Below are positions 3,491 to 28,013 of a stretch of 32,000 nt of DNA, one piece after another. How positions within the stretch are numbered: the stretch's first letter is position 1; each line of letters starts with the position of its first letter. Location of the stretch: contig CAYZPH010000002.1 of the NCBI GenBank assembly GCA_964480495.1, positions 59,357 through 91,356 of the forward strand, read 5' to 3'. The notes below the pieces were generated by a model. The model was not told the DNA's origin. It ran no database searches and saw only the letters and a program-made list of their open reading frames with translations. The stretch comes from an uncultured Sangeribacter sp. (lineage in GTDB: Bacteria > Bacteroidota > Bacteroidia > Bacteroidales > Muribaculaceae). Position numbers and translations under genes: made by a program.

Positions 3491-3491
3491 A

Positions 3492-3544
3492 AGAAAAAAA
3501 TACTAAGGAGCCGGGATTGCGCCAAGAGGCGTAATCTCGGCTCC
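3492..3544 (-). terminator. Intra-operon GC-rich hairpin plus U-run (attenuator/partial terminator) between the SGBP and GH16 genes
   Basis: The minus-strand RNA reads ggagccgagattacgcc-tctt-ggcgcaatcccggctcc, a 17-nt stem with 2 A.C mismatches. It is followed by ttagtatttttttctt, which runs straight into the GH16 ATG at 3490. Confidence 0.4.
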
Positions 3545-3559
3545 GAACCTACCTGAAAA

Positions 3560-4960: not shown

Positions 4961-4972
4961 GATTCTAAGATA

Positions 4973-6490: not shown

Positions 6491-6523
6491 ATCAGTCGAG
6501 ATATAATGTTAGATTAGTATTAT

Positions 6524-9500: not shown

Positions 9501-9667
9501 GTGGCAGTTCCTTTAAGAGTTGTTTTTTCGAGTACAGAGGCACCGATTATAGGCTCTCCAGCCGAGTCGGTGACAGTGCCTTTGACATCGATGTCTGCAT
9601 AGGCGACTCCCATGCCTGCAATCGCTGCCATAAAAGCAGACAGATACCTTGCTTTAAACTTTTTCAT
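6524..9667 (-). CDS. susC: SusC-like TonB-dependent outer-membrane transporter
   Basis: The tracked ORF begins at a TTG (9691). I place the start at the ATG at 9667 (MKKFKARYLSAF..., signal peptide). The protein has a carboxypeptidase-regulatory-like N-domain (DIDVKGTVTDSAGEPIIGASV), plug motifs (DLVVIGYGTQKK, DPLYIVDGMP) and a C-terminal beta-strand ending in an aromatic residue (TVGFNIEF). There is no STN signalling domain. Confidence 0.93.
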   Translation of the reverse strand: MKKFKARYLSAFMAAIAGMGVAYADIDVKGTVTDSAGEPIIGASVLEKTTLKGTATDIDGNFKITVPDNATLRFSAVGYGDKEAKAEPVMRIVLTESSDMLEDLVVIGYGTQKKSVVTAAISSINSDDLEMTAPVRVDNALKGLASGVTVTSSSGQPGAAARVRIRGVGTINNSDPLYIVDGMPIEGGLDYLNPADIASIEVLKDAASGAVYGARAANGVVLVTTKQGQLGRAKVTYGFSYGWQSVAKKRNVLNATEYAMMMNEGSLNSGVAPLYADPASYGEGTDWQEEVFNNNAPVMNHQVSVSGGSEAVKYMLSLGYYDQDGIVGGNFNRSDYNRLTLRSNLGITLFDESKKRSWLNKATVQTNLAYTRIKSHGIETNSTWGSPLGSALAMSPILTPYLEKGSAEEASQLAYLANQSDYVPMYGNDGRLVMVPTAFGNFQEMSNPIANLMLPGNNNWSHKFVGNFTGDLQIWDNLHYRISYGADLSFWGYDGYTPIYYLRDGASTDHSTAISTSERGLVWQIENILSYDKTIDLHTFSVLLGQSAKESGGQYLGGTRNNITNYDRPYIDASTGLAADGDMTVWGAPQVKSKLASYFARVSYDFDSRYMIQATIRRDGSSRFGANNHWATFPSVSAGWNIMNEQFMESSSNWLNNMKLRASWGKNGNENIGNFQYVALTSSNNNAIFGNPGSIAIGTKPSQLANPDLKWEESESYDVGLDFGFLSNSLTFSADYFFKKTNGMLMTMSLPQYVGEAIPVGNVGNMQNWGLEFDLGYRHEFFNQLTVGISANLSYLKNKLVKYGNEEGWANLDSFQGVGTILRAENGQPFPYFYGYKTNGIIQNMAEANEYNSKYGTSLVPGDVRFVDTDGNGAITEDDRTNIGNGTPDWTYGATLNLAWKGFDFNIFFQGVAGNDIFDATRRVDARSVNLPSWMLDRWTGEGTSNRVPRFVIGDGYNWQSSDLYVYDGSYCRLKNMQLGYTIPSDITKKIGVQKFRAYVAVENLATWTKYHGYDPEISSGSNSSNGVDFGVYPQARTWTVGFNIEF

Positions 9668-9718
9668 GAGATATAATTTTAGGTTTAGCAAATGTTAAAT
9701 ATTCTCAGATTTTTTTTG

Positions 9719-9726
9719 CAAAGATA
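9719..9726 (-). promoter_or_regulatory. Candidate Bacteroidetes -7 promoter box upstream of susC
   Basis: Plus-strand caaagata equals minus-strand TAtcTTTG, which matches the TAnnTTTG consensus. It lies 52 nt upstream of the susC ATG. No convincing -33 TTTG is seen at the expected spacing. Confidence 0.3.
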
Positions 9727-9774
9727 GTGTTTCTTTTCACTTTTTATGAATTATGTAAGTTCATTGGTAAGTAT

Positions 9775-9810
9775 ATATAAAAATTATTGCCCTGACAATC
9801 AGGGCAATAA
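9775..9810 (-). terminator. Rho-independent terminator after the regulator gene
   Basis: Perfect 12-bp stem ttattgccctga / tcagggcaataa (9784-9795 and 9799-9810) with a 3-nt loop. On the minus strand it is followed by tttttatatat. It lies 52 bp downstream of the regulator stop codon. Confidence 0.7.
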
Positions 9811-9861
9811 AGAAAAGTTTCTTTAATTTTCGGTAAATCTCGAAACTTGACTTCCGAGCGT

Positions 9862-11655
9862 TTAGTTCTCTATTCTTCCGAGTTTTCTAACGGTTTCGGC
9901 AAACTGTTCACGGCTCACGGCAGCCTTGTTTCGTGTTCGTTGGCGAGTATTGTATACAGTCTGCACTGAGCAGTGGAGAAACTTCGCAATCTTTACGCTA
10001 TCGTTGAGACCAAGTCTCACGAGAGCATAGATACGCAGTTCGGTGTTAAGAGTTTTAGGATTTCGCAACTTTATTCGCTCCTCGGGGCGCAACAAGGTGT
10101 TGAAATCCTCCACAAAACCGGGATAAATATTTAGGAAAATCTCATCAAAAGTCTCGTATAACTCCTTAATTTCGTCGTATGAAAGTTCCGGAGACTTCAC
10201 TATATCTAGCACCTTGTCAAATTTTTTGTCGACGAGCAATCTGTGGATATTGCTACGGAAATCATCCATCTTGTTGATGTAGTTGCTACAGATAGCAAAC
10301 ATGTCGGCTATATGTCTTTCCTTTTCTTCGTTGACATCTGCAAGTTCCTTTGCATTGCATTTCGCAGTCTGATACATTTCCTGAAGCTTTTCATTTGTTT
10401 CATTGAGCTGAGCTCTGATTGCAGAAAGCGCCTTCACCTTGTCGTTGAGTTCGGCATTTGCTTCGTTGAGAGTGGCTCTGGACTGCTTTAAAAGCTTGTT
10501 CTGTCGCATAATGTAGAATATCGATGCATTGATCACCGCGATAATTACGATCAAAAGCACCATATAGATATGATTTATGCGAATCTGCCTCTCACTTCTC
10601 TCCTGAATACTCTGAAGTATATCCTTCTGCAAGCGTGCCAGATTGCCAGTTCTTACCCTGCTTTTGTAGTCGTTAGCGCATGCTATGCAATAGTTTACAT
10701 ATTGATTCGCATGATCCAAATCACCGATATCGTAGAGAATTTTGGAGGCTTCTTCAAGCGATGCGATTTCTTTGTTACAAGCACGAATATCTGCCATGGC
10801 CGAGGAAAGGAGATATTTCAGATAGTTTTGCTTGTCGCCAATCTGCTCGTATAGCTTTGCGAGCACCCATGCCATCATGGCAAAATCACGAGTAGCATTG
10901 TCGGAAGAATCAACAGTTTTCCTAAGAATAGGAATTGCAGAAGCCGCCTTCTTCTTGTCATTCAAGCTGCTCCAGCCCGTAAGCCAGTAATAATTTGAGT
11001 CTCCCTCTCTGAGGTCTTTTGTCATCTCATGTAGAATACTGTCTGCCATCTGAGAATACATTCCCATTTCGTATTCCACTCCTATATAAAGGTCCGTGTG
11101 TGTTGACAGAAACAGCATTCGATCGCAATATTTAAGAGCGAGCTCAGGGGAAAGCTGTGCTGAGTCGATTGAACCAAGCACCTCCGCAGCCTTTTCGAGG
11201 AAACCAGTAGCAGAAAGCAGGTAGACACGGTTGAGATTCATTTCATCCTCTAAATCCGTCCGACCTAGTTGCTTTGCAGTGGCAAGAGCCTCATCAGCAT
11301 ATTTCATCGCAAAATCAGAGTCGTATGCACTATACTCTTCGTAGAGCGATGACTGCAGCCAGTAACGCTGTTCAAGATTTCCTGTAGCGTCCAGTTTGCG
11401 ATGAAAACTCTCAATGCGGCTTTCCTTTTCTTTTATGAACTCAGAAGATTTCAGCAGCAATGAGTCTAAATCGGTAAGTATCGTCTTTATTTCAGGCGTC
11501 AGGCGCGCCGGAATATCCTCATTCTGAGCCGTAGCAGTAGTAACCACAGCTACAACAGCACAGAACACACAACAGGCCCTAATAGCCGCACACTGCGCAA
11601 TAAACGACAAACGCACCGCCACACCACATATTTTGTCTGAAATCGTTGAATTCAT
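9862..11655 (-). CDS. Membrane-spanning one-component regulator: periplasmic TPR-like sensor, one internal TM helix, coiled coil, C-terminal HTH (DUF6377-like architecture)
   Basis: 597-aa ORF. A hydrophobic N-terminus (aa ~17-42) is followed by ~320 aa of helical TPR-like repeats. A TM helix spans aa ~361-383 (NHIYMVLLIVIIAVINASIFYIM), followed by a heptad-rich segment. The C-terminal HTH reads ELRIYALVRLGLNDSVKIAKFLHCSVQTVYNTRQRTRNK. The gene lies directly upstream of susC. Confidence 0.7.
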   Translation of the reverse strand: MNSTISDKICGVAVRLSFIAQCAAIRACCVFCAVVAVVTTATAQNEDIPARLTPEIKTILTDLDSLLLKSSEFIKEKESRIESFHRKLDATGNLEQRYWLQSSLYEEYSAYDSDFAMKYADEALATAKQLGRTDLEDEMNLNRVYLLSATGFLEKAAEVLGSIDSAQLSPELALKYCDRMLFLSTHTDLYIGVEYEMGMYSQMADSILHEMTKDLREGDSNYYWLTGWSSLNDKKKAASAIPILRKTVDSSDNATRDFAMMAWVLAKLYEQIGDKQNYLKYLLSSAMADIRACNKEIASLEEASKILYDIGDLDHANQYVNYCIACANDYKSRVRTGNLARLQKDILQSIQERSERQIRINHIYMVLLIVIIAVINASIFYIMRQNKLLKQSRATLNEANAELNDKVKALSAIRAQLNETNEKLQEMYQTAKCNAKELADVNEEKERHIADMFAICSNYINKMDDFRSNIHRLLVDKKFDKVLDIVKSPELSYDEIKELYETFDEIFLNIYPGFVEDFNTLLRPEERIKLRNPKTLNTELRIYALVRLGLNDSVKIAKFLHCSVQTVYNTRQRTRNKAAVSREQFAETVRKLGRIEN

Positions 11656-11678
11656 CTAACAGAAAAATCTATATCAAA

Positions 11679-14810
<3,132 letters not shown>

Positions 14811-16289: not shown

Positions 16290-18224
16290 ATGAAAACTCA
16301 TATAACACTTTTAGGACTTATCGCAATAACTTTTTGCGGAAATGCCGCAACAATAAGCAGTCCTGATGGTCGTCTGGCATTGACAACCTCTATAAAAGAT
16401 GGGAAACCTGTCTATTCCGTAAGCTATGATGGCAAAGCAATACTATTAGACTCTCCACTTGGATTCGAGTCGAATATTGGAGATTTTACGCAAAATCTCA
16501 CACAAACCTACGACAAAACCGGAGCAGTAAGTCGCAGCTTTGACCAAGATCGAATAAAAAAGAGCCATATCGACTGGAAAGCCAACACACTGTTGGAAGA
16601 ATATTCCAACGCAAAAGGACAGAAGTTTTCCGTTGAATGGGAAGTAGGCGACAATGACATAGCATTCCGCTATGTCATACCGGAACAAGGGGAGGCACGC
16701 AGCATGATTGTAAATAAAGAAGCAACGGGGTTCCGTTTTCCAGACTTCACCACAACTTTTCTTACCCCTCAAAGCGATGCGATGATTGGATGGAAACGCA
16801 CCAAGCCATCATATGAGGAAGGCTATACCCCTGATGCACCACTCAACGCACCATCGCACTACGGCCACGGCTTTACTTTCCCTGCACTATTCCATGTAGG
16901 AGACAACGGCTGGGCACTTCTGACAGAGACCGGTGTAGACGGCAGCTACTGCGGCAGTCGTCTCAGCGATTACAAGGGAGGCGTTTTCACTATCGAATAT
17001 CCTATGCCGGAGGAAAACAACGGCAACGGCTCCTCATCGCCTGGCATACCCCTACCGGGGAAAACACCTTGGCGCACTATCACCGTAGGGAGCAATCTGA
17101 AACCGATAGTAGAGACCACAATACCTTGGAATGTTGTAGAGCCACTTTATCAAGCAGAAAGCGAAGTGCGCCCCGGTAGAGGCACCTGGAGCTGGATTAT
17201 TTGGCAAGACAACTCCATCAACTATGACGACCAGATCTCTTATATCGACTTTGCCGCTGACATGGGCTACGAGAATGTGCTCGTAGACTGTGCATGGGAC
17301 ATAAATATCGGACGAGAGCGCATGGAGCAACTCGCAAAATACGCGCAAAGCAAAAGCGTGAACTTGATTATCTGGTATTCATCGTCGGGCTGGTGGAACG
17401 ATATTGTGCAAAGCCCCGTCAACATCATGTCGCGTCCGATACCCCGCAAGCAAGAGATGAAATGGCTCAAATCAATCGGGGTAAAAGGGATTAAGGTTGA
17501 TTTCTTTGGAGGAGACAAGCAAGAGACAATGCGTCTCTACGAAGATATCCTCAGCGACGCTAACGACTACGGCATCAGTGTGATTTTTCACGGATGCACA
17601 ATGCCAAGAGGATGGGAAAGAATGTATCCCAACTACGTGGGCAGTGAGGCGGTATTGGCTTCCGAGAACCTTGTGTTTAGTCAGGATTTCTGCGACAAGG
17701 CGCCTTTCCATGCAGCACTCCATCCTTTCGTCCGCAACTCAGCCGGAGTCATGGAATATGGCGGAACAGTGCTCAATAAGCGGCTGCACCGCAGCAACGA
17801 AAAGGGCAATATACGCCGCACCTCCGATGCCTTTGAGATTGCCACGGCAATTCTCTTCCAGAACCCAGTACAGAATTTCGCCTTGGCACCTAACAACCTG
17901 ACAGATGCGCCGGCAGATGCCATACAGTTTATGAAAGATGTTCCCACCACTTGGGACGAAACCCTCTACATCGACGGATACCCCGGTAAGTATGTGGTAC
18001 TTGCGCGCCGACACGCTGACAAATGGTATATAGCAGGAGTTAACGCCCTTGACAAGCCGCTCAAACTGACACTCGACCTTCCAATGCTTCAAGTCGGCGA
18101 TGAAGCGATCATCTATTCCGAGCAAAAGGGGAAGACTCTCAGTGCCAACATACTCAAAATAAAGAAACCGACAAAGGTGCAAGTAACTATCGATCCGGCA
18201 GACGGATTCGTCATTGTCAAATAA
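16290..18224 (+). CDS. Glycoside hydrolase family 97 (alpha-glucosidase/alpha-galactosidase type), secreted
   Basis: 644-aa ORF with a signal peptide. It has a GH97-type N-domain start (ISSPDGRLALT...DGKPVYSVSYDGKAILLDSPLG), a central TIM-barrel region with GVKGIKVDFFGGD, and a C-terminal DKWYIAGVN beta-sandwich. Confidence 0.85.
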   Translation: MKTHITLLGLIAITFCGNAATISSPDGRLALTTSIKDGKPVYSVSYDGKAILLDSPLGFESNIGDFTQNLTQTYDKTGAVSRSFDQDRIKKSHIDWKANTLLEEYSNAKGQKFSVEWEVGDNDIAFRYVIPEQGEARSMIVNKEATGFRFPDFTTTFLTPQSDAMIGWKRTKPSYEEGYTPDAPLNAPSHYGHGFTFPALFHVGDNGWALLTETGVDGSYCGSRLSDYKGGVFTIEYPMPEENNGNGSSSPGIPLPGKTPWRTITVGSNLKPIVETTIPWNVVEPLYQAESEVRPGRGTWSWIIWQDNSINYDDQISYIDFAADMGYENVLVDCAWDINIGRERMEQLAKYAQSKSVNLIIWYSSSGWWNDIVQSPVNIMSRPIPRKQEMKWLKSIGVKGIKVDFFGGDKQETMRLYEDILSDANDYGISVIFHGCTMPRGWERMYPNYVGSEAVLASENLVFSQDFCDKAPFHAALHPFVRNSAGVMEYGGTVLNKRLHRSNEKGNIRRTSDAFEIATAILFQNPVQNFALAPNNLTDAPADAIQFMKDVPTTWDETLYIDGYPGKYVVLARRHADKWYIAGVNALDKPLKLTLDLPMLQVGDEAIIYSEQKGKTLSANILKIKKPTKVQVTIDPADGFVIVK

Positions 18225-18286
18225 CGAGTTTGCTGTTGTTGCGCTCCGCCATATCATAAGTGGCGGTTATATGACTGAAGAGATCC

Positions 18287-18336
18287 GCCCTCTAAAAGTT
18301 TTTTATCTAACTTTTAGAGGGCTCTTTATTTTAATA
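18287..18336 (+). repeat. Left copy of a perfect 50-bp direct repeat; doubles as a terminator hairpin after GH97
   Basis: The sequence gccctctaaaagttttttatctaacttttagagggctctttattttaata is identical to 23573-23622. It holds a perfect 14-bp stem (18287-18300 / 18309-18322), an 8-nt loop and a T-rich tail. It lies 62 bp after the GH97 stop. Confidence 0.9.
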
Positions 18337-18666
18337 CACCCTCACCCGGAGCCAATTCTCAGTAAGTACTATTGCGACAAGCAATAGATTATTCCCTACA
18401 GAAGGAGAATTCAAACGAAAAGCTTAGGGTCTATTACTATCATGGGCATCTTATCAGAACATGGGAGATGTTGACAAATCATTCGTGAGAGGGATTGATC
18501 TTTGTGATGACAAACAACATTCCGACTATTTTTACACATTACGCAAGAAATAATATTCTGAAGGGGAATTTAGAATTTTCAGATTTCTTGCCTTTGCAGC
18601 TTTTATGAAAAGATATTTGTTACTTTTTCGAAGGAAGTCATGCAGTAAAACGAGAAAACGTGTATC

Positions 18667-20256
18667 ATGATTCTTGTGAAAGAAACACTGAATATAGATG
18701 ATTCCACTATAGTGAAGGAATGCAAGCATGGCAATCGGGAGGCAATGAGTCTTCTGTACACTCGTTATGCCCCAAGAATGTTGCGACTTATTTCCTTCTA
18801 CGTAAAGAATTCAGATGATGCGAAAGACATTCTCCACGATGGATTCATTGCGGCATTCACACGTATCGACACACTTCAAGACCCGGCAAAGGTCGATCAT
18901 TGGCTTGCAACTATCATAAAAAACCTCTCGCTAAAATTTCTTCAAGAACAAAGTGTGGTTTCATTACTCAATGAAATTCCTGAAGAGCCAAGCGATGACT
19001 GCGAAATAGACAATATAATTGATTTCGAAACCCTTGAGACTCTTATATGCCGTCTTCCTGATGGTTACCAGAAAGTATTCCGGTTGGCAGTTTTAGAAAA
19101 CAAGACGCACAAGGAGATTGCACAAATTCTTGGAATTGCGCCCAACTCCTCATCCTCACAGCTGTTTCATGCAAAAGTGCATTTGCGTAGGCTAATAATG
19201 GAATATAAGAAAACGGCAGGCACTCTCATATTACTTCTCATAGCAGTTGCAACAGAAACATATATTTCTTTTAACAACTCTGATTATGATGGCACAATGT
19301 CATCTAAGCCTAAATCTTTAGGAACTGCTGCATATCCGGTGGCACAACATACCAAAACATCTAGAATCGTAAGACATTCTCCCAACTGTCCAGCAACTAC
19401 TATTTCTGTTAACACATTCAAAAAGCAAGAATCGCTCATATCTATGTCTAGAAGTGAGCGTATAACTGCGGACACCATACCATCCTTGCCAGCAAAAACA
19501 GCAAAATACGATATAGATTCATCTTCAACCTATAATAACGACACGACATCTGAAGCCGAGTCTTCTCCAAAAGAGATTTTTGAATATCACTACAAAAAGC
19601 TGGATTATGAAAATGATATATCTGCAGACAATTCCTGTAAAAAAAATAAAGAAAAGGGATGGAGTGCCGGAGTGTCTTTTGACCCCGGAATAATAAATTT
19701 TGATAAATCTCTAAACGACGGAGAGTTAGCTGACAACGAACACATACACGATTACCTTAAATTTCAGAATCATAAAAATATGCTACCAATAACGGTAGGT
19801 ATTAAGATTGAGAAACGTATTACTTCTTGGCTTGGCATAGAGTCTGGACTTACTTATACATACCTTCAGTCTGATTTCGAATATCGCAAAAACCAAGCCC
19901 GATGTCAATGGCACTATATTGGGATTCCTCTGAAAGCGAATCTCTATGCATATTTATCATCAAAAATACATCTATACGTCTCTATGGGAGGCGATTTTGA
20001 AATTCCAGCATATTCAATCACAAAACCTATTAAGACAGAAAACGTTTTAGGTTATTCTTACGGAAAATTTAAATCTCCGGTTGTTTGGTCGCTTAGTGGA
20101 AGCGTTGGTATTTCCGTGCCCCTTTCACAGAAGATAGATATATATATTGAGCCTACTCTCAAGTATAATTTCCCTCACGACTATAGAGTGCCAAATGCTT
20201 GGAGCGAACACCCTTTGAATATTTCAATTCCTATAGGAGTACGTTTCAAATGGTAA
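18667..20256 (+). CDS. ECF-type sigma-70 factor fused to a TM helix, Ser/Thr-rich linker and C-terminal outer-membrane-type beta-barrel domain
   Basis: 529-aa ORF with four parts:
- aa 1-180 form an ECF sigma factor, with region 2 (DAKDILHDGFIAAF...VDHWLATIIKN) and region 4 (LPDGYQKVFRLAVLENKTHKEIAQILGIAPNSSSSQLFHAKVHLRRL).
- aa ~183-201 are a hydrophobic helix (TAGTLILLLIAVATETYIS).
- aa ~202-330 are a low-complexity S/T/K/D-rich stretch.
- aa ~331-529 show the alternating amphipathic strands of the OMP_b-brl_2/porin-like family (WSAGVSF, LGIESGLTYTYL, WHYIGIPLKANLYAY, LYVSMGGDFEIP, IYIEPTLKYNF) and end in an aromatic residue (RFKW). Confidence 0.8.
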   Translation: MILVKETLNIDDSTIVKECKHGNREAMSLLYTRYAPRMLRLISFYVKNSDDAKDILHDGFIAAFTRIDTLQDPAKVDHWLATIIKNLSLKFLQEQSVVSLLNEIPEEPSDDCEIDNIIDFETLETLICRLPDGYQKVFRLAVLENKTHKEIAQILGIAPNSSSSQLFHAKVHLRRLIMEYKKTAGTLILLLIAVATETYISFNNSDYDGTMSSKPKSLGTAAYPVAQHTKTSRIVRHSPNCPATTISVNTFKKQESLISMSRSERITADTIPSLPAKTAKYDIDSSSTYNNDTTSEAESSPKEIFEYHYKKLDYENDISADNSCKKNKEKGWSAGVSFDPGIINFDKSLNDGELADNEHIHDYLKFQNHKNMLPITVGIKIEKRITSWLGIESGLTYTYLQSDFEYRKNQARCQWHYIGIPLKANLYAYLSSKIHLYVSMGGDFEIPAYSITKPIKTENVLGYSYGKFKSPVVWSLSGSVGISVPLSQKIDIYIEPTLKYNFPHDYRVPNAWSEHPLNISIPIGVRFKW

Positions 20257-20341
20257 AGAGCCTTGAACATTGCCGGACTTAAGAGGGCTACAAAAAATAC
20301 AAAAGACATATTTACATTATATAAACTCAAAACACTAACAA

Positions 20342-21469
20342 ATGAAAATTACAAAACTATGGATTTTAGCTTCATTAACGTTGTTGTGTCTTACAACGGC
20401 ATGCAATGAAGAACTTTCGGTTTACACCGACAGAAATCCGTTTAATGATCGCATCACAGAACTTATATTCGGAATGCACAGCAAGTTGCACGAGTGTAGC
20501 CGAGGTTCGCTAATTAGAATAACACGTTTGACGACTAGCTCTTACAATGTATCAGACACACTAACGACAAGGACAGATAGTCCTAAAAGCAATGACACTT
20601 ATGAAATTCACACAGTGGAAATAGACTTCGGAAATACATCAGGCTACGCAATACTTTCTGATACGCCAGGTATAGATCAAATATTCTACTATACAGAGGA
20701 TGGATGCATCGAGGATACTACATTAATACCCCCCTTGCGAGATTTGGTCAAAGCCATACCCGAAATGGCAAACGAAATATTAACAAATACAACAGAAATT
20801 AATACTAGATCTAGCGATAATGATATAAATATCATGCCACTTGTAAAGTATGAATGGGGACAAGGAGAACCTTTTAATAACTATGCCACTTATTGCACTT
20901 GTGAAGAGTGTAGGAAAATCGGGAATCACATGCCTATCGGGTGCGTAACAGTAGCTCTTGGTCAATTTATAGCGACCATGAAAAAATTCAATGGTACATT
21001 CTATGGCAACCGTAACATCGATTTTGAATCATTGCCTACTTGCCAGCGGGATTTTTCAGCAGAACAATCACTGGCAGTCGCTCACTTTTTACAAGAAATA
21101 GCATTGAACTGCCAAACGAAGTTCCGATGCGGCGCAAGTTCCTCAACATCATATGCAGCCACAAACTATCTTCGGGATCTAGGATATTCTGTAGATCAAG
21201 TGGAAGGGAGTATTAATAAACAGCGGTTTATCAACAATCTAAAAGTGGGAAATCCTCATATAGCATACGGTGTAAGTTCTGAAAACAGAGGACATATGTG
21301 GATTGTTGATGGATTTACAGAACAGAACAATGTTTCCCAATACCATATAAATTGGGGATGGGGATCCAGCAATGGGTGGTCTTCCTGCTACAATTACATG
21401 ACTATCAAAGATCCAGAAAAGACTTATAATTATTATAAAAACCAAGGGCACCTTTATTTTGGTGGATAA
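20342..21469 (+). CDS. Lipoprotein cysteine protease, peptidase family C10 (streptopain/SpeB, Bacteroides Bfp-like) with propeptide
   Basis: 375-aa ORF with lipobox LTTAC. It carries a propeptide-like block (GYAILSDTPGIDQIFYYTEDG) and the catalytic Cys context YEWGQGEPFNNY...PIGCVTVALGQF (Cys201). The catalytic His context is RGHMWIVDGF...YHINWGWGSSNGW (His318), closely matching the SpeB GHAFVIDG...YHVNWGWGG. Confidence 0.87.
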   Translation: MKITKLWILASLTLLCLTTACNEELSVYTDRNPFNDRITELIFGMHSKLHECSRGSLIRITRLTTSSYNVSDTLTTRTDSPKSNDTYEIHTVEIDFGNTSGYAILSDTPGIDQIFYYTEDGCIEDTTLIPPLRDLVKAIPEMANEILTNTTEINTRSSDNDINIMPLVKYEWGQGEPFNNYATYCTCEECRKIGNHMPIGCVTVALGQFIATMKKFNGTFYGNRNIDFESLPTCQRDFSAEQSLAVAHFLQEIALNCQTKFRCGASSSTSYAATNYLRDLGYSVDQVEGSINKQRFINNLKVGNPHIAYGVSSENRGHMWIVDGFTEQNNVSQYHINWGWGSSNGWSSCYNYMTIKDPEKTYNYYKNQGHLYFGG

Positions 21470-21518
21470 ATAAATTACTAAATAAAAAATAACCGACAAC
21501 TTATAAAATAAGCGAAGT

Positions 21519-22751
21519 ATGAATAACAAAATAAGCAACACCTTGCATTTTATCTTACAGAGTGTAGTCATGTCAATAGCTCTGATAACAGTTGGATGTA
21601 GCGATATTGGAGATGCGAATGAATTTATATTGGAGACCAAAGCTCTGAGATTTACGGATGACCCAGATTTTGATGCAGAAGACCTCTACACTCCAGAATT
21701 CATATATGTAGATTCTTCAGAACAGATAATAACCTTACATTGCAAACCAGCATATAATGACATTCCGGCAATCCAGAAATTTTACTTTGCATTTCCAGAA
21801 CTTGATGAAAGTGAGGGGTTCTATCGCTGGATATACTATGGCATAGATGAATTCACTGACTCAAGCAATATGAAAAACGAATATTGTCACGTATGGAATG
21901 AAATTGAAGAAGGAGAACCTGTCATAAAAATAAAACTTAATGCAAACGATTCGGATACAGAAAGAAAAATGCATATTAATATTTCTGCCGGAATTATTTA
22001 TCAAACCGCACATGTTTTTGGACTTATTACCATCGTTCAATCACCAAGTAAAGACAAAACAAATAGTTTTGTTCTAAAAGCCAAATACAAAGGCCACATA
22101 TATACAACGGATACAGATATAGATACCAATGGATGTATCGTATACCATAATAATGAATATAGACAGATTATGGAGACAATAGACTTGAGTCCGTATATTC
22201 ATGAAGTAATAATGGACAATGACCTAATATATTATTATGACGATGAGGATATAGCGACCAATAAACCATTACAGGACTTGATGAACTCTGACGAATCTAG
22301 AAGTGAAACGAAAGAGGACAATACGAGATCCACTAGTTTCGAAGGAATCAGTTCTAATGACAAGGGATATGTGGCTCTTCACGACAATGACAATTTCGGA
22401 GGGAAATATATATCAAAAGGACTTACTAATTATCATTTCACGTGGAATCTACCAAATCTTAAAGATTATGGAATGAATGATAACGTCACTTCAATAGCAG
22501 TGGCATATAATGGAGAGGACCCTAATATATGCTCAGTATTGACCATCTGGGATGACTCTGACTACAATTTTGGAGACAACAGTAGAAAAAAGCACCGAAT
22601 AAGTATAATAGCATCAAAATACAATCAGTACACATCTGTAGCGGATTTAAAAAAAATCAAGAAAATAGGATCCTCTAAGTCATGGAATGACTGCATTTCA
22701 TCTATTTCGTTTCACTTTGGCTATACTGATAGATTATTACTTGATTATTAG
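21519..22751 (+). CDS. Lipoprotein of unknown function: BACON-like N-domain, middle region, beta/gamma-crystallin-like C-domain
   Basis: 410-aa ORF with lipobox ITVGCSD. aa ~36-175 are paralogous to the next gene and end in a BACON-type pattern (KIKLNANDSDTERKMHINISAG...GLITIVQS). aa ~283-402 contain two Greek-key-like motifs: VALHDNDNFGGKYIS...YGMNDNVTSIAV and LTIWDDSDYNFG...SWNDCISSISF. Confidence 0.65.
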   Translation: MNNKISNTLHFILQSVVMSIALITVGCSDIGDANEFILETKALRFTDDPDFDAEDLYTPEFIYVDSSEQIITLHCKPAYNDIPAIQKFYFAFPELDESEGFYRWIYYGIDEFTDSSNMKNEYCHVWNEIEEGEPVIKIKLNANDSDTERKMHINISAGIIYQTAHVFGLITIVQSPSKDKTNSFVLKAKYKGHIYTTDTDIDTNGCIVYHNNEYRQIMETIDLSPYIHEVIMDNDLIYYYDDEDIATNKPLQDLMNSDESRSETKEDNTRSTSFEGISSNDKGYVALHDNDNFGGKYISKGLTNYHFTWNLPNLKDYGMNDNVTSIAVAYNGEDPNICSVLTIWDDSDYNFGDNSRKKHRISIIASKYNQYTSVADLKKIKKIGSSKSWNDCISSISFHFGYTDRLLLDY

Positions 22752-22790
22752 AAACCTCAACAGATACAAACATATATTTATACAAGAAGT

Positions 22791-23297
22791 ATGAATCTGA
22801 CAAAAAATAAGTTATCTAACATTAGAGTAGCAATAGTTTGTGTCTTCATCCTTTCTTTCCTCGGAGGATGCTCTGATAACGATGATCTAATGATTGGATT
22901 TTTTCAAGACATCCGATTTTTAGATACCACACAGGAATGGTCTTCTTATACAGAGACAATTGAGATCGACTCAAAAGCTCAGACACTTGATTTTACTATT
23001 AAATTGATCGAACCAGATATATTTCGGCCTGAAGACATTACTTTTTACTACGCTACCCAATGGGATGAATTTTTTGAACGTTGGACAAACTTAACTGCCG
23101 TAATACAGACACCGACGACCAAAGATTTCTGTACGATCAGGAAATTCTGGCACAATGGGAACTTGACTATTCAAGTTTCGCTCCAAGCCAACAATACCGG
23201 AGAAAATAGAAAGATGCATATTCATGCTTATGGTGGTTTTTATTCAGGACACGAACGAATCGGCAATTTGGATATAACCCAAACCTTCAACGAATGA
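22791..23297 (+). CDS. Small lipoprotein with single BACON-like domain (paralog of the N-domain of the preceding gene)
   Basis: 168-aa ORF with lipobox FLGGCSD. QVSLQANNTGENRKMHIHAYGG...GNLDITQT aligns with KIKLNANDSDTERKMHINISAG...GLITIVQS of the upstream protein. Confidence 0.6.
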   Translation: MNLTKNKLSNIRVAIVCVFILSFLGGCSDNDDLMIGFFQDIRFLDTTQEWSSYTETIEIDSKAQTLDFTIKLIEPDIFRPEDITFYYATQWDEFFERWTNLTAVIQTPTTKDFCTIRKFWHNGNLTIQVSLQANNTGENRKMHIHAYGGFYSGHERIGNLDITQTFNE

Positions 23298-23334
23298 GAT
23301 CAACTATGTCTGCCTTTACGCCATTGGTCTGATT

Positions 23335-23560
23335 ACGTCGTAGCCTCTTAAACATACTTGTACTAAAACGTACGGTGGTCTTGTTGTGAAGAATTACTTA
23401 CACACCGAAGCACACTACCTGATACTGCTATGAATTTTAATTTCTAGCCCCTGTGACTTGTTTTTGCTTGACCGAAGGTAATTTCTCTCCAGTAGTGCTT
23501 CTGAAGGCACTCCTAAAGGATTCTTACTTTGTATGTTTTTTACTAGAAGAGGCTACGCGT
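23335..23560. repeat. ~226-bp non-coding segment bounded by imperfect terminal inverted repeats (MITE-like, tentative)
   Basis: acgtcgtagcctctt (23335-23349) pairs with aagaggctacgcgt (23547-23560). The 11-bp core cgtagcctctt / aagaggctacg is perfect. I found no ORF or recognisable protein fragment between the arms. Confidence 0.25.
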
Positions 23561-23572
23561 ATTTTGAAGTGT

Positions 23573-23622
23573 GCCCTCTAAAAGTTTTTTATCTAACTTT
23601 TAGAGGGCTCTTTATTTTAATA
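23573..23622 (+). repeat. Right copy of the perfect 50-bp direct repeat / hairpin
   Basis: Identical over 50 nt to 18287-18336. The flanking bases differ on both sides (c vs t upstream, c vs t downstream). Confidence 0.9.
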
Positions 23623-23677
23623 TCAATACCCACAAACAATCAATGCATTACAAAATCCGCACTTTTTCCGCACTTGA

Positions 23678-24262
23678 AAAATTGCCAAGAAAAAACATTT
23701 TGTATTAACTTTGCGAGAAAACAAAATTGCATTCGACATTAAGAATCTTCCAATCGTTTACTCAAGCAAGATAACTGTTCTTCTGTTTACAATGCCCGAA
23801 GAACTAAATGTTGGAAACAAGACAGAATCCTCGCTCGCGAGTATACTTGAAGGAACAACTATGCAGTAACAGGTTCTTGAACTATGTAACAAATGTGACA
23901 AATTAAAAGCGTCATCATATCGGGGAAAGTTCGGGAATAAGAAAAAAATAGCCTTGCAAACCATTGATAAATATCTCGTTAAAAAAACCGAACTATTTCC
24001 GAACTCTAAAAATCTCTTGACAAGGCAAATTTCGCACCCATGGGATTAGGGGAATCCCACACAATTGCTCCACAAAACATCGATAAGGATTGACTAGAAA
24101 GGGGCTGGACTCGCAGCTGTTACAGGAGGCATGGACATACAACAGCCTAACAAGTCAGATTATCCCAAAGTAAAAGTAGATTTCGACCGTCCATTTCTCT
24201 ATATCGTCGGAAACAACAAAACCGGAGCTATCCTGATGTCTTGCACAGTGATAGGATTCTGA
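23678..24262 (+). pseudogene. Serpin (protease inhibitor I4) C-terminal half, inactivated: 5'-truncated with three in-frame stops
   Basis: A single frame (codon starts at 23678 + 3n) reads ...FDIKNLPIVYSSKITVLLFTMPEE...MQ*(TAA 23867)...YRGKFGNKKKIALQTIDKYL...HPWD*(TAG 24047)GNPTQLLHKTSIRID*(TAG 24095)KGAGLAAVTGG...KVKVDFDRPFLYIVGNNKTGAILMSCTVIGF*(TGA 24260). The hinge/reactive-centre-loop pattern (HK..I.VdE.G.eAAAvTg) and the C-terminal serpin signature (DRPFLF.I.....ilF.G.v) are clear. No N-terminal half is present. Confidence 0.75.
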
Positions 24263-24290
24263 AAAATATTCAAAACAATAGCTTTTTAAT

Positions 24291-24330
24291 TGAACTGCGT
24301 CCCACAAGTTTGAACTGCACCCCAAAAGTT
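24291..24330 (+). repeat. Tandem imperfect 20-bp direct repeat
   Basis: tgaactgcgtcccacaagtt (24291-24310) and tgaactgcaccccaaaagtt (24311-24330) match at 17 of 20 positions. The second unit forms the left arm of the following hairpin. Confidence 0.8.
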
Positions 24331-24365
24331 AGACACAAAACTGTTGGGGTGCAGTTTTATTTATT
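24313..24365 (+). terminator. Rho-independent terminator downstream of the serpin remnant
   Basis: 18-nt arms aactgcaccccaaaagtt (24313-24330) and aactgttggggtgcagtt (24339-24356) pair with one mismatch. The loop is 8 nt (agacacaa) and the tail reads ttttatttatt. Confidence 0.75.
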
Positions 24366-24530
24366 CCCGACACTAATACTCGGTAAGTACTATAGCGCCT
24401 GGATAGACGAGCATGATCTGGTAGTCCATATCACAAGTGATTATGGTATAAACATTACCGATAAGCAAGGGGAACCGATTGTCTGCGGCACATGGCATCA
24501 ATCATGTGAAGGGAGTAGAATGATATAGTA

Positions 24531-24785
24531 ATGTCGTGTTCTTTCAATGAAAGAGATACTGAAATAGATACGTATTTAGACGAAGACCCTATGAATTCAG
24601 AGATGCACCCGTCTTTTAAGATTCATTCCATCGTCGGACTATCTGGCAATCTAGTGCCATTCGATGAGAAGTTGCAAAGCACACTGCAATACCAAGAACC
24701 GTATTTATACAATAAACTACTACCTTTTCAACCAAATCATCTGAACCCTCCTACGATATACACATTCAAAACTTCCGATAATTAA
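24531..24785 (+). CDS. Hypothetical 84-aa protein (doubtful)
   Basis: ATG-initiated ORF in otherwise non-coding DNA. It has no signal peptide, no recognisable motif and no evident promoter. It may be a gene remnant. Confidence 0.2.
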   Translation: MSCSFNERDTEIDTYLDEDPMNSEMHPSFKIHSIVGLSGNLVPFDEKLQSTLQYQEPYLYNKLLPFQPNHLNPPTIYTFKTSDN

Positions 24786-24863
24786 CATTCTTAGTTGACT
24801 TAACTATCAATAGTCGGGCTACTCTGTGGCTGATTTGATTTTTGGTTTTTTAAACATAAGAAT

Positions 24864-24894
24864 TTTGCAGTTTCGGCAAAATATGCTATTTTTG
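24864..24894 (+). promoter_or_regulatory. Candidate promoter of the TPR/beta-barrel operon (-33 TTTG / -7 TAnnTTTG)
   Basis: tttg at 24864-24867 and tatttttg at 24887-24894 with a 19-nt spacer. The -7 box ends 17 nt before the ATG at 24912. Confidence 0.5.
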
Positions 24895-24911
24895 TGGGAA
24901 ATTATAACGCA

Positions 24912-27900
24912 ATGAATTTAAACAGCATAACGACACGAAGATACAGGCTTTTGGGAATAGCATTGACCGCAGTTCTCACACCTGTGTCAACTCATGCGCA
25001 GGCATACGGAATAGGCGGAGACCTCAGTCCGCTATGTCCGGGATATATACAGCGAGCCTCGCGCATGCTGGAATCGGGCAACCCACTTGGCACCTTAGGA
25101 CAAAATGACATCTCCTGCATAGAATTTGATTTTCTCTCAGATGAAGAAAAAGCCGAATGGCTCGCAATGGAAGGAGTCGCTCAGTTTGACCGAGGGAATC
25201 CGGATTGTGTAAAAACTCTTTTGCGGATAGCATCCGAATATCCGGAATCGACGAAGGCAATACCGGCACTTCTTACAGCAGGCGACTGGCACTGGTTCCA
25301 TTCAGAATGGCATTCTGCCCTTGAACTATACTCAAGGGTTGACATACAAAGGCTCCCAGACTCTGAACGATGTCTCTACTCCTACCGTAAAGGACTCGCC
25401 TACCTAAAATGCGGAATGCCGGAAAATGCCACACCGCTTCTCACACCCCTCATTGGAGAGAACGGCTATGACATTGCAGCACGCTATTATCTCGCTTATG
25501 CCAGATATCTTAACAAAGATTATGATACTGCCTACGATGAAATGAAGCGAATAGCAGAAGAGATTTCTGGCAACAACGGTTCGGGTAGGGACAGCGGCAG
25601 AGGCCAGAGACAGGTTCGTGCCGAACGTGCTTATGTGAGCGATGGCATAGAGCCCCATTACTATATGGCACAAATAGAATATCTAAGAGGGGAGTACTCC
25701 GAAGTAATCGACCATTCCAAGACACTCATGGCAAAGCGTCCGGTAGCGGAACTGCTGCCGGAACTTCACCGCATATCAGGTCTTAGCTATTTCAAAACCG
25801 GAGACATTGACAACTCTCGTGCCCATCTCGAAGAATATTTCCGCACCACTGACTCACCCACCGACGATGCAGTATATGCTTTGGGAGCTATACAGTATGC
25901 CAACAACGATCTTGAAGAGGCAGAGAAAAAGATGCAGACCCTCACAGACCGCAATAATATGTTTGCCCAAGGGGCATACCTATATTTGGGGCAAATAGCG
26001 GAACGAGATGGCAACATGAACGCAGCGGCCATAGCATTTGGAAAAGCTGCAGACATGGCATATGACCGGAAAGTAGCCGAGACGGCATTCTACAATAGGA
26101 TAGTGGCAATAGCCAAAGGGGGCAACACTCCTTTTGCCAGCAGCATATCGCTACTTGAGGACTTCATTAAAAAGTATCCAAACTCGCCTTATACTTCTGA
26201 TGTAGAAGAAAGCCTCGCCACTGCATACTTCCATGAAAATGACTACCGGCAAGCTCTCGCTGCCATCAACAGAGTTAAGAACCCATCTACAAGCACACTC
26301 GCCACGAAGCAGAAGATACTGTATCGTTATGGTGTGAGCGACATAACCGCCGGGAGACCAGACAACGCAATAAAGCACCTTCAGGAAGCTGCCAACATGA
26401 GTCATGTAGACTCAAAGCTCTCAAGTGAGTCAAGACTTTGGCTTGGAGAAGCATTATATCGCACCGGAGACTACAAAGGAGCGACCTCCGCCTACGAATC
26501 GGCACTTAGAGGCAAGCTCTCTACAGACAACATGCTCCTCGCCCGTTATGGGCTTGCCTACAGCAACTTCCAACGAGAAGAATGGAAGAAAGCACGACAG
26601 AACTTCTCAATAATTGCTAACGACAAGTCATCGCCAGAATCGATGCGAATCAACGCATTGGTGCGTGAAGCAGACTGTCTCCACTATCTCGGCAACCACA
26701 AAGAGGCAGCCGACAAATACTCTTCTGCATCACAATCAGGAGGCACCGATGCCGACTATGCCGCATTCCGCCATGCAGTTGTGATTGGACTCACAGAAGG
26801 GACCGACGCCAAGATGCGTGAGCTTGACACCTTTCTCAGCAAACGTAAAGATTCCCCTTGGACACCGCAAGTGCTGCTCGAAGCAGGAAGAACTTTGTCA
26901 TCTCTTGAGCGCCCGGACAAAGCAGCACCCTATCTTGAACGCCTTAGGAACGAATATCCACGCGACTCCAAGAGCCGTGAGGGAGCTATGTCGCTTGCCC
27001 TTGCCTATATGAAACAAGGGAAGACCCAAGAAGCACAAAAGGCATATCGCGACATTATCCGCACATGGCCCACGAGCGAGGAAGCATCGCTCGCCAATGA
27101 CGACATGAGACGTCTGACAGCAGCAGACGGCACACTTCAAGAGTATGCCGACTTTCTCTCTACTATAGATGGAGCCCCACAGATCAACCCCGACGAGATG
27201 GACACCTACACCTTCGAGGCTGCAGAGACCGCTTATGCCGAAAATCCGGGAAACACTTCCCTACTTGAAAAATACATAGATAACTACCCCAACGGACGCT
27301 GGCTCTCCAACGCACTTATGGACTTGGCAGAAGCAGCAGACCGTTGCGACGACACTCACAAAGCACTCTCCTATCTCGACCATCTGCTTTCAGCAAGAGG
27401 AGACTCTCAACATGTGCCGGCAGCACTTTTCCTCCAGGCAGAACTTCTTGAAGCCTCAGGAGAAAAAGAGAAAGCACTCGCCTCCTTCAAGGCTCTCGAG
27501 ACAAGAGGAAGCACTGACTTTGCACCCGAAGCGACAGCCGGGATCATGCGTTGCACCTCCGACGCAAAAGAACGTACAGAATATGCCCGTCGTCTTTTGG
27601 CAACCGGGGGCGTGACAGATGCCGACGCAGAAGAAGCACGCTTTTACGAAGCATCTGGACTGCTCCACTCCGGAGAAACAGAAGCAGGAGAAGCATCACT
27701 GAAAGTTCTTGCAAAGAATCCCGACACCCTTTCCGGTGCGAAAGCTGCAGTAGAATTAGGGGAGTGGCAACTCGCCTCCGGAAACACTAAGGATGCACTC
27801 GAAACACTTGAACAATTCACAGATGCCGGTTCTGTTCATGCCTATTGGCTCGCTCGCGGCTTCATAGCTCTCGCAAAGGCTTATCATGCCGAGGGCAACG

Positions 27901-28013
27901 ACTATCTGGCCACAGAGTATCTCAAAAGCCTTCGCGAGAACTACCCCGGCGATGAGCCGGACATAAGAGAAGCAATAGAATCCGGAATCTCTGAATATAA
28001 AACGCAACACTGA
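24912..28013 (+). CDS. Large secreted tetratricopeptide-repeat protein
   Basis: The tracked ORF starts at a GTG (24894). The ATG at 24912 gives MNLNSITTRRYRLLGIALTAVLTPVSTHAQA, a signal peptide with no lipobox Cys. About 1000 aa follow with recurring TPR-like A/Y/L patterns (e.g. YYLAYARYLNKDYDTAYDEM, LWLGEALYRTGDYKGATSAYE, ALAYMKQGKTQEAQKAYRDI). Confidence 0.8.
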   Translation: MNLNSITTRRYRLLGIALTAVLTPVSTHAQAYGIGGDLSPLCPGYIQRASRMLESGNPLGTLGQNDISCIEFDFLSDEEKAEWLAMEGVAQFDRGNPDCVKTLLRIASEYPESTKAIPALLTAGDWHWFHSEWHSALELYSRVDIQRLPDSERCLYSYRKGLAYLKCGMPENATPLLTPLIGENGYDIAARYYLAYARYLNKDYDTAYDEMKRIAEEISGNNGSGRDSGRGQRQVRAERAYVSDGIEPHYYMAQIEYLRGEYSEVIDHSKTLMAKRPVAELLPELHRISGLSYFKTGDIDNSRAHLEEYFRTTDSPTDDAVYALGAIQYANNDLEEAEKKMQTLTDRNNMFAQGAYLYLGQIAERDGNMNAAAIAFGKAADMAYDRKVAETAFYNRIVAIAKGGNTPFASSISLLEDFIKKYPNSPYTSDVEESLATAYFHENDYRQALAAINRVKNPSTSTLATKQKILYRYGVSDITAGRPDNAIKHLQEAANMSHVDSKLSSESRLWLGEALYRTGDYKGATSAYESALRGKLSTDNMLLARYGLAYSNFQREEWKKARQNFSIIANDKSSPESMRINALVREADCLHYLGNHKEAADKYSSASQSGGTDADYAAFRHAVVIGLTEGTDAKMRELDTFLSKRKDSPWTPQVLLEAGRTLSSLERPDKAAPYLERLRNEYPRDSKSREGAMSLALAYMKQGKTQEAQKAYRDIIRTWPTSEEASLANDDMRRLTAADGTLQEYADFLSTIDGAPQINPDEMDTYTFEAAETAYAENPGNTSLLEKYIDNYPNGRWLSNALMDLAEAADRCDDTHKALSYLDHLLSARGDSQHVPAALFLQAELLEASGEKEKALASFKALETRGSTDFAPEATAGIMRCTSDAKERTEYARRLLATGGVTDADAEEARFYEASGLLHSGETEAGEASLKVLAKNPDTLSGAKAAVELGEWQLASGNTKDALETLEQFTDAGSVHAYWLARGFIALAKAYHAEGNDYLATEYLKSLRENYPGDEPDIREAIESGISEYKTQH

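Follow-up and report, generated by a model that had tools for sequence, protein, structure and literature searches.

Two identical 50-nt sequences enclose four co-oriented genes in the stretch of DNA analysed here, a 32-kb piece of contig CAYZPH010000002.1 from an uncultured Sangeribacter sp. (the window, to which all coordinates given without a contig refer), and the relatives of its GH97 glycoside hydrolase place this DNA in the Muribaculaceae. A first-pass annotation had taken the four genes for an accessory cassette bounded by the repeats, and had proposed that insertion or recombination at the repeat destroyed a neighbouring serpin gene. The explanation that we consider probable is a different one: the repeats are terminator hairpins derived from an insertion sequence (IS) of the IS3 family, the right copy (A') is a recent copy of the left copy (A), and the block between them is accessory and older. 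The perfect repeat is, on this explanation, the product of ordinary processes, namely the reuse of IS-end relics as terminators and their local homogenisation.

The repeat was real as annotated: a direct repeat search of the window returned two copies (18287-18336 and 23573-23622) that agree at 50/50 positions. A pattern for the 36-nt core of the 50-mer matched only those two places within the window and had no match in 100 shuffled versions of it. The open reading frames (ORFs) between the copies (18667-20256, 20342-21469, 21519-22751 and 22791-23297) confirm the four genes and the gaps of 85, 49 and 39 nt described earlier. Each 50-mer consists of a 14-bp stem closed by an 8-nt loop, of the palindromic form GCNCNCNAAAAGTT-N8-AACTTTTNGNGNGC, and then TCTTTATTTT. 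The left copy is flanked by ..GAGATCC on its 5' side and CACCCTCACC on its 3' side, and the right copy by ..TTTGAAGTGT and TCAATACCCAC, respectively. A third, diverged copy of the hairpin (C) lies at 24312-24357, and these three, all within a low-G+C island, are the only members of the hairpin family in the 32 kb.

Several features suggest that the hairpins act as Rho-independent terminators whose pairing has been kept by compensatory change. Both 50-mer copies are terminator-like in a simple scan and are followed by U-rich tails, and the RNA folds of the hairpins have energies of -21 to -28 kcal/mol with z-scores of about -6 (A, -22.9 kcal/mol, z = -6.1; C, -27.7 kcal/mol). They lie 62 nt past the stop codon of GH97, 275 nt past that of P168 (the last of the four genes) and 49 nt past the serpin remnant; because A, A' and C follow them, GH97, the four-gene block and the serpin each end in a hairpin of one family. 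Two compensatory changes of stem pairs separate A from its orthologue in a sister species (contig L104), and three such changes separate A from C, which are 60% identical, both being small samples. The resemblance extends beyond the stems, as the ~30 nt after C are similar to the ~30 nt after A (78%). An Rfam search over 18000-25000 gave no match at E <= 1.

The evidence that carries the argument comes from this sister species, also of the Muribaculaceae, whose contigs (L104, L105 and L122-L124), like the short-read contigs of the window species, were retrieved by exact-protein look-ups. Its DNA is ~90% identical to the window and its contigs are 98-99% identical to each other. The order in L104 is frr, pyrH, GH97, hairpin A, a sigma factor fusion gene, a C10 protease gene, P410, P168, hairpin B, an intact 415-aa serpin and hairpin B', followed on the other strand by a hybrid two-component gene; L105, L122 and L123 show the same gene order as far as they reach. 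The breaks in the assemblies fit this order, contigs of the sister species passing through A and ending at B, and those of the window species ending at A and A'. The repeats do not mark the boundaries of a cassette, since L104, L105, L122 and L123 have the four genes and the left hairpin without the right copy, and in L104, L122 and L123 hairpin B stands at the position of A'. Divergence is equally telling: the cassette genes are 89-95% identical in nucleotides to those of L104, compared with 89-92% for frr, pyrH and GH97, and hairpin A differs from its L104/L105 orthologue at 5/50 positions, like the local background of ~11%. As the four genes are as diverged as the core genes, the block was already at this site in the common ancestor of both species; judged by these comparisons it is accessory but vertically inherited in this sub-lineage, older than the species split, and not the recently acquired cassette that had been proposed.

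The right copy, by comparison, appears young. A and A' agree at 50/50 positions while A differs from its own orthologue at 5/50, which identifies A' as a recent intragenomic copy. The identity runs from the first base of the stem to 14 nt past it, including the U-rich tail private to A, with unrelated sequence on both sides. Directly 5' of A', the sequence AAGAGGCTACGCGTATTTTGAAGTGT is unlike the 5' flank of A; it shares homology with a composite Duncaniella hairpin (L019), on the left side of the latter, with a score that 1/2000 shuffles reach. The site after P168 would therefore already have held a member of the family. The same flank had also been considered as a remnant of hairpin B of L104, a candidate rejected because 1044/2000 shuffles score as well. 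Window positions 23333-23873 around A' are unmatched in L104, which has 320 nt with hairpin B instead. Between the two copies, A is the likelier donor because it shows no excess divergence from its L104 orthologue. The sequence of events that we infer is that A is the ancestral GH97 terminator, and that a related hairpin after P168 was recently overwritten by A over a 50-nt tract in the window lineage, the likely process being gene conversion, or else template switching during replication, between paralogous hairpins that lie close together.

A parallel case is found in the sister species. In L104, hairpins B (9731-9766) and B' (11474-11509) are identical over 36 nt and bracket the serpin, and the sister species thus appears to have independently homogenised its own pair. 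Two sister lineages that homogenised different terminator pairs argue for concerted evolution of the hairpins rather than insertion scars. The right arm of B also recurs after hairpin A in L104, at 4825-4838.

The ultimate source of the hairpins seems to be the palindromic left end of an IS3-family element, that is, an inverted repeat (IR) followed by its complement, which has since degenerated. A degenerate family pattern found four IMG/VR contigs (L107-L110), and a 48-nt palindrome query led to plasmids of very distant bacteria. In Priestia koreensis (L126), TGAACTGCACCCTAAAAGTTAGACA is the left terminal IR of a 1.43-kb element with a matching IR at its right end, an OrfA with HTH_Tnp_1 and an OrfB with HTH_21/rve, domains that identify it as an IS3-family IS. 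At the left end of this element the IR is followed by its own complement, and the same hairpin that they form directly precedes the start codon of orfA. Hairpin C agrees with the L126 left IR at 24/25 positions of its left arm; the 25/25 match of this arm to the consensus holds by construction, because the consensus used is C's own left arm (also the right arm of L019). IS3-family elements related to the hairpins would be expected to have TGAACTGCACCCCAAAAGTTAGACA ends. The annotation had noted no integrase, transposase or tRNA target; these comparisons point to descent from an IS3-family IR, in a form too degenerate to serve as a transposon end.

Members of the family occur in unrelated contexts (L019, L107-L110, L090-L103 and L125), those of L019 and L107-L110 being 92-97% identical to C. 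The Duncaniella copy in L019 is a 48-nt version with perfect TGAACT..AGTTCA ends; it has ATTT at either side and is nested in a larger hairpin (-55 kcal/mol). An ORF comes after the hairpin in L108 and L109, and the 22 residues that can be read before both loci end resemble the start of an IS3-type OrfA; blastn of this region against phages and plasmids gave one weak match. Ralstonia megaplasmids carry a 52-nt solo palindrome of the same IR (L125 2501-2552, R. solanacearum CP022756), and palindromic IS ends of this type would accordingly be spread across phyla. The L125 palindrome (TGAACTGCACCCCAAAAGTTGGACA..) lies between convergent genes in GC-rich Ralstonia megaplasmids and is found in about 49 Ralstonia records. 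Overall the family is rare: ~1.3 Mb of unselected Bacteroidales loci yielded one further copy.

Three smaller observations concern the hairpins themselves. In the last 30 nt of contig L003 (sample SRR22923233) the 8-nt loop of the right repeat (window 23587-23594) is inverted, reading AGATAAAA instead of TTTTATCT; the inverted loop is joined to the unique left flank ..GAAGTGT and the left repeat of the same contig has the normal loop, so that L003 records a real loop-flip polymorphism in 5.3 kb that are otherwise 100% identical. Short-read contigs from three other samples start at or near hairpin C (L008 and L009 at window 24313, at its left arm, and L007 at 24415), which suggests either that those metagenomes contain another copy of the palindrome or that strains differ in structure, with a breakpoint at this hairpin. 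At window 24290-24329 there is a tandem 20-mer, 85% identical, which is a partial duplication of the left arm of C (IS3-type IR).

The features of the region are as follows, with strand in brackets.

16290-18224 (+): GH97 glycoside hydrolase, the last core gene left of the island (Pfam GH97_N, Glyco_hydro_97 and GH97_C; syntenic with frr-pyrH in L010, L104 and L122).
18287-18336 (+): left 50-mer, that is hairpin A with its U-rich tail, putative GH97 terminator (14-bp stem 18287-18322 with an 8-nt loop; arms 15-18/25 to the IS3-type IR).
18369-18610 (+): N-terminal remnant (aa ~134-280) of a SusR-like regulator pseudogene with tetratricopeptide repeats (TPR), a transmembrane helix (TM) and a helix-turn-helix (HTH) region (tblastn).
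18667-20256 (+): Dma3-like sigma/barrel protein (Pfam, NCBIfam, AlphaFold2 (AF2) model, Foldseek).
20342-21469 (+): C10 (SpeB-like) cysteine protease lipoprotein (PF01640, motifs, lipobox).
21519-22751 (+): P410 lipoprotein, conserved partner of C10 (C10+P410 pairs elsewhere, AF2 model).
22791-23297 (+): P168 lipoprotein, paralogue of the P410 N-terminal domain (BLASTP).
23287-23331 (+): C-terminal remnant (aa 573-587, HTH region) of the SusR-like regulator (tblastn E = 1.5e-4).
23333-23873 (no strand): lineage-specific segment that holds the right repeat, without an L104 counterpart (blastn, MAFFT against L104).
23547-23572 (+): 5' flank of the right copy, with its own outer hairpin arm and an IS-end remnant (..TGAAGTGT) (homology to L019).
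23573-23622 (+): right 50-mer A', putative terminator after P168 (repeat search, terminator scan, fold).
23874-24013 (+): upstream region of the serpin (74% to L104 9964-10103).
24010-24262 (+): serpin pseudogene remnant, aa 334-415 of the 415-aa orthologue (Pfam, comparison with L104).
24290-24309 (+): partial tandem duplicate of the left arm of hairpin C (repeat search).
24312-24366 (+): hairpin C with its U-tail, putative serpin terminator and solo palindrome (fold; left arm 24311-24335 is an IS3-family terminal IR).
24366-24397 (+): diverged duplicate (78%) of the sequence after hairpin A (18345-18376) (repeat search).
24912-28013 (+): TPR protein, the first core gene right of the island (ATG 24912 is the start called on L006; the ORF list extends to GTG 24894).

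A whole-region computation upheld the dip in G+C that the annotation had estimated from single lines: the cassette genes have a G+C content of 0.34-0.39 (0.32-0.37 at third codon positions) and the flanking genes 0.44-0.50 (0.42-0.52). The low-G+C tract passes the right repeat and ends at ~24.86 kb, giving an island of ~6.5 kb (18337-24860) with a G+C content of 0.372, against 0.46 on its left and 0.50 on its right. This island is an AT-rich accessory block wedged between the GH97 gene and the TPR-protein gene of a Muribaculaceae genome. In the closest GTDB species representative (L010, from the metagenome-assembled genome RGIG8502; GH97 84% identical in amino acids) the order is GH2, frr, pyrH, GH97, a ~1.5-kb gap, TPR, P560, P181 and MazG; a different hairpin and an AAA-ATPase-like gene fragment lie in this gap, and the four genes and the serpin are absent. 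The earlier description of an AT-rich accessory block therefore holds for its distinct composition and its absence from L010, and fails at its right edge, which the low-G+C tract overruns. Likewise, a relative without the block exists as had been expected, but the segment missing from L010 corresponds to 18337-24860, larger than the repeat-bounded one, and neither repeat is present there. Pfam searches on all large ORFs found no integrase, recombinase or transposase in the 32-kb window, ARAGORN found no tRNA or tmRNA gene in the window, L104 or L010, and tblastn with IS3 transposase found no transposase remnant in the island, in agreement with the annotation.

The loss of the serpin is a separate event. 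Its remnant, interrupted by a frameshift and a stop, starts 388 nt downstream of the right repeat rather than ~55 bp and corresponds to aa 334-415 of the intact orthologue. The window lacks the counterpart of L104 10104-11181 (~1.08 kb), and the sequence upstream of the serpin (23874-24013) now runs directly into the final 82 codons (24010-24262). Since L104 has both the cassette and an intact serpin, insertion at the repeat did not destroy the gene; comparison of the two loci points to an internal deletion, away from the repeat. Debris of a second gene lies on both sides of the operon. Positions 18369-18610 match aa 134-184 and 241-280 of a 632-aa TPR-TM-HTH (SusR-like) regulator of L116 (tblastn E = 1e-8 and 3e-5), with frameshifts and a stop, and 23287-23331 match its aa 573-587 (E = 1.5e-4), of which L104 (9598-9675) keeps aa 573-598 (E = 4e-7); given these remnants, the four genes lie between N- and C-terminal fragments of the regulator. 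An intact homologue stands directly upstream of the C10+P410 pair in L116, also a member of the Muribaculaceae. The 159 nt at 18395-18553 are part of the regulator remnant, deleted in L104, and not an insertion in the window; the beginning of this remnant is found again behind hairpin C. The motif TGTGATGACAAACAACATTCCG, which precedes both the sigma gene and the serpin and resembles a promoter, was discarded as a candidate, being coding debris of the regulator pseudogene. The island has thus been built and eroded by several rearrangements.

Other explanations of the perfect repeat were weighed against this evidence. A mobile cassette or islet might have entered by recombination at the 50-mer, leaving the repeats as attL/attR-like scars and breaking the serpin. 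Such an event would account for a perfect repeat around exactly four genes, for their low G+C and for their absence from L010, and the de Bruijn contigs would topologically fit a 5.3-kb circle together with an empty site. We nevertheless hold it to be very unlikely, given that L104, L105, L122 and L123 have the same junction and left hairpin, without the right copy and with an intact serpin, that the divergence of the block equals that of its flanks, that the serpin was lost by an internal deletion, 388 nt away from the repeat, that the low-G+C tract passes the right repeat, and that the window holds no recombinase. The breaks in the assemblies also invite the suspicion that the arrangement is a mis-join across the 50-nt repeat in a metagenome-assembled genome: all short-read contigs of the window species stop, precisely at A and A'. 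However, sister-species contigs run uninterrupted from GH97 through P168 and have a left junction orthologous to that of the window; P168 and the right copy are joined on L003, the right copy, the serpin remnant and the TPR gene are joined on L006, and a single linear path uses all four junctions, which makes a mis-join extremely improbable. A composite transposon with ends resembling miniature inverted-repeat transposable elements (MITEs), mobilised in trans by an IS3-family transposase elsewhere in the genome, would suit a hairpin family derived from IS3-type terminal IRs, in which each palindrome holds the IR in both orientations, and MITE-flanked composite elements are known from other bacteria. 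The outer ends, however, read AGATCC (left) and TCTTTA (right) where TGAACT and AGTTCA (TGAA..TTCA termini) would be expected, the tract 18287-18336 does not correspond to ends defined by the IR, no duplication of 3-5 nt is shared by 18281-18286 and 23609-23628, the sister species has no right copy, and tblastn found no transposase remnant. On these grounds we regard it as highly improbable.

We assign a small but appreciable chance to another origin of the right copy, in which a miniature element of ~50 nt, consisting of a solo IS-end palindrome, was transposed by copy-and-paste into the terminator of P168. Palindromes 92-97% identical, found in unrelated contexts in Duncaniella L019, four IMG/VR contigs and Ralstonia megaplasmids, would be its kin; the arrangement in L019, with ATTT at either side, looks like insertion into an older hairpin's loop; and the IS3-family elements IS1397 and ISKpn1 are known to insert into extragenic palindromes, the repetitive extragenic palindromic (REP) hairpins (PMC1525189). 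Yet the tract shared by A and A' takes in 14 nt of A's private 3' tail and leaves out the 6 outermost nt of the IR, a different IR-end subtype (TGAAGTGT) stands on the 5' side of A' and so indicates that a family member was already there, and only one extra copy was found in the ~1.3 Mb of Bacteroidales loci. A more elaborate possibility, which we think doubtful, is that IS3-end palindromes are still live low-copy miniature elements in Muribaculaceae and their phages, which land in terminator loops, become terminators and homogenise, the resulting repeats then deleting, or by recombination re-inserting, whole surface-protease operons, so that the 50-mer pair would be a population-level on/off switch for the C10 protease, its partner lipoproteins and the trans-envelope sigma factor. 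As part of that same doubtful possibility, the loop flip of L003, the loss of the C10 gene in the sister-species strain L124 (described below) and the loss of the serpin in the window would be symptoms of instability.

The preferred explanation, in which IS3-derived terminator hairpins were homogenised around an older accessory block, has its own difficulties, and the following points count against it. The direction of conversion from A to A' is indicated solely by the lack of excess divergence between A and its orthologue. The rest of the 540-nt segment around A' possibly came in by a larger replacement through recombination with an unsampled allele. The arms of A and A' match the IS3-type IR at 13-18/25 positions only and have lost the outer TG..CA bases, and the IS descent proposed for A follows from its family resemblance to C, L019 and L092. 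The L010 locus may reflect the secondary loss of a related module rather than an ancestral empty site, as its AAA-ATPase_like/PDDEXK_9 fragment (12064-12825) is 46% identical to an intact gene that follows the C10+P410 module in L116. Finally, an exact scan with the 36-nt hairpin core gave no match in the GTDB species-representative genomes, a set that apparently does not include the source species, and in metagenome contigs it gave 14 contigs of one human-gut Bacteroidales locus, with an identical stem and different loop and flanks; the genome-wide copy number of the hairpin is outside the scope of both scans, and the metagenome match is uninformative for the source genome.

The products of the four genes are consistent with a surface-protease operon. 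At the N terminus of the first protein, PF04542 and PF08281 score above their cut-offs and TIGR02937 matches as well, and Pfam OMP_b-brl covers its C terminus, which confirms the sigma/beta-barrel fusion of the annotation (Sigma70_r2/r4 and OMP_b-brl). The AF2 model has a helix at residues 159-206, a predicted local distance difference test (pLDDT) score below 50 over most of 207-326 (207-238, 240-326) and an eight-stranded barrel at 330-529 with pLDDT mostly above 90. Foldseek relates the N terminus to sigmaE and SigW and the barrel to OmpA, OmpW and Ail (TM-scores of 0.6-0.7 for OmpA/OmpW). The protein is thus predicted to be an extracytoplasmic function (ECF) sigma factor joined through a TM helix and a ~120-aa disordered linker to an 8-stranded outer-membrane (OM) beta-barrel. 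It has at least 695 homologues, 36-48% identical among the full-length matches listed beyond its closest relatives. Dma3-like fusions form a large paralogous family in Muribaculaceae that heads varied gene sets (L111, L113, L114), one of them consisting of a small CarboxypepD_reg protein, a radical-SAM/SPASM enzyme and resistance-nodulation-division (RND) efflux genes; several contigs stop just past the fusion gene.

The second protein is a C10 peptidase, as annotated (Peptidase_C10, PF01640, 74.7 bits against a cut-off of 26), and looks active in that its Cys and His motifs are kept (GCV at 200, GHxxxxDG at 317 and NWGWG at 337); its lipobox LTTAC is seen in the translation. The C10+P410 gene pair recurs at other loci (L116, L118), and P410 belongs to a family of 242 representative clusters. 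Its AF2 model (pLDDT 82) has an Ig-like sandwich as N-terminal domain, and its C-terminal domain gives weak beta/gamma-crystallin and Inhibitor_I36 signals. P410 is a candidate inhibitor or anchor. P168 is 29% identical to the N-terminal domain of P410 (BLASTP E = 3e-7) and is a copy of it. The designation of these two lipoproteins as BACON-like is at most weak, because residues 134-174 of P410 match PF13004 only below threshold (E = 0.082, 13.3 bits against a cut-off of 25) and P168 has no Pfam match. In all three non-sigma proteins the lipobox is followed by acidic residues, which in Bacteroides are a lipoprotein export signal, and these features of the translations suggest that the three lipoproteins are exposed at the cell surface.

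Together, the genes read as a single operon of lipoproteins around a C10 protease, in line with the surface-protease module of the annotation, and its control by the sigma factor is a matter of inference. In the mechanism that seems most likely, the membrane-spanning sigma factor would sense an envelope or extracellular cue through its barrel, its sigma domain would be freed by proteolysis, as proposed for Dma proteins, and the freed sigma factor would drive the downstream protease operon, which ends at A'; the adjoining serpin may once have balanced the proteolysis. In the sister-species strain L124 (SRR36265379), 1,033 bp of the C10 gene are gone at L124 1796-1797 (L104 6715-7747; window ~20394-21426), and the sigma gene, P410 and P168 are kept, a natural protease knock-out that mirrors the ~1.08-kb serpin deletion of the window. 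The serpin in the window and the protease in L124 are thus both dispensable in nature.

Outside the island, window positions 122-14783 form a polysaccharide-utilisation locus with GH3, a GH16 with a true BACON domain, SusD, SusC, a SusR-like regulator (DUF6377/SusR_C) and GH2, followed by frr and pyrH. In relatives with a GH97 74-76% identical in amino acids, tRNA-Glu(ttc) genes lie after GH97 on the other strand (L011 3026-3098 and 3413-3485; L014 12089-12161), and L012, L013 and L015 have the same 5' stretch of this tRNA-Glu region after GH97, their contigs ending inside this stretch or shortly beyond. The sequence that follows GH97 in L011-L015 is not the end of a tmRNA, as ARAGORN gives tRNA-Glu. 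Arrays of GTCTTAA/GTCTTGA-type heptamers are found in L012 (569-638, 1868-1907, 2742-2775 and 4276-4311) and, after GH97, in L011 and L013; they recur after successive genes in other Muribaculaceae metagenome-assembled genomes and represent another gene-end intergenic repeat family.

These results carry a caution for genome scanning: a perfect repeat around AT-rich accessory genes mimics a mobile cassette, and a single sister genome exposed it as concerted evolution of terminator hairpins. They also suggest that IS3-family ends persist as gene-end terminator hairpins in gut Bacteroidales, where neighbouring copies homogenise differently in sister species. The operon headed by a Dma3-like trans-envelope sigma factor is a candidate regulon for a class of regulators without known targets, and P410 represents a small lipoprotein family whose genes are conserved neighbours of those for C10 proteases.

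New cases of known kinds are provided by the Dma3-like regulator, by the pairing of C10 with P410 and by the terminators derived from IS3 ends. Proteins of the Dma family begin with a cytoplasmic module, followed by a single TM helix, an extended disordered linker in the periplasm and an 8-stranded OM barrel at the C terminus; whether one polypeptide spans both membranes was examined for Dma1 by fractionation or tagging, and Dma3 (BT_2778) is predicted to be an N-terminal sigma factor fusion (PMC10927553). The window fusion shares the sigma domain, TM helix, linker and barrel and is closest to Dma3, but it is a Muribaculaceae paralogue heading a C10 protease operon, and the gene sets behind other paralogues are unrelated. 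Muribaculaceae/S24-7 commonly have SpeB homologues (PMC4936053), and the Bfp C10 proteases of Bacteroides fragilis have adjacent staphostatin-like inhibitors, two of them being on mobile elements (Thornton et al. 2010, PMC2873492). The window operon has in common with these a SpeB-like C10 lipoprotein, a few partner lipoproteins and accessory DNA of odd composition; in contrast, P410 is not staphostatin-like but Ig-like and weakly beta/gamma-crystallin/I36-like, there is no conjugative transposon or prophage, and a serpin adjoins in the sister species.

For the hairpins, the nearest comparison is with IS3-family elements: a window arm matches the left IR at 24/25 positions, L126 has the same hairpin of IR and complement, and the L019 copy is nested in a hairpin. 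The window copies differ in lacking a transposase and, for A and A', the TG..CA termini, and in standing as gene-end terminators with compensatory evolution, at three copies in 32 kb. They also recall REP sequences and bacterial interspersed mosaic elements (BIMEs), being short gene-end palindromes that have been put to use as terminators, become uniform within a genome yet diverge from species to species, and lie at rearrangement breakpoints; however, the window family is of very low copy number compared with hundreds per genome, has no REP-associated tyrosine transposase (RAYT) and originates from a DDE-type IS end. With att-flanked islets the window shares low-G+C accessory genes between core genes and a direct repeat at their edges, but it has no integrase or tRNA target, and its repeat lies off the boundary between presence and absence.

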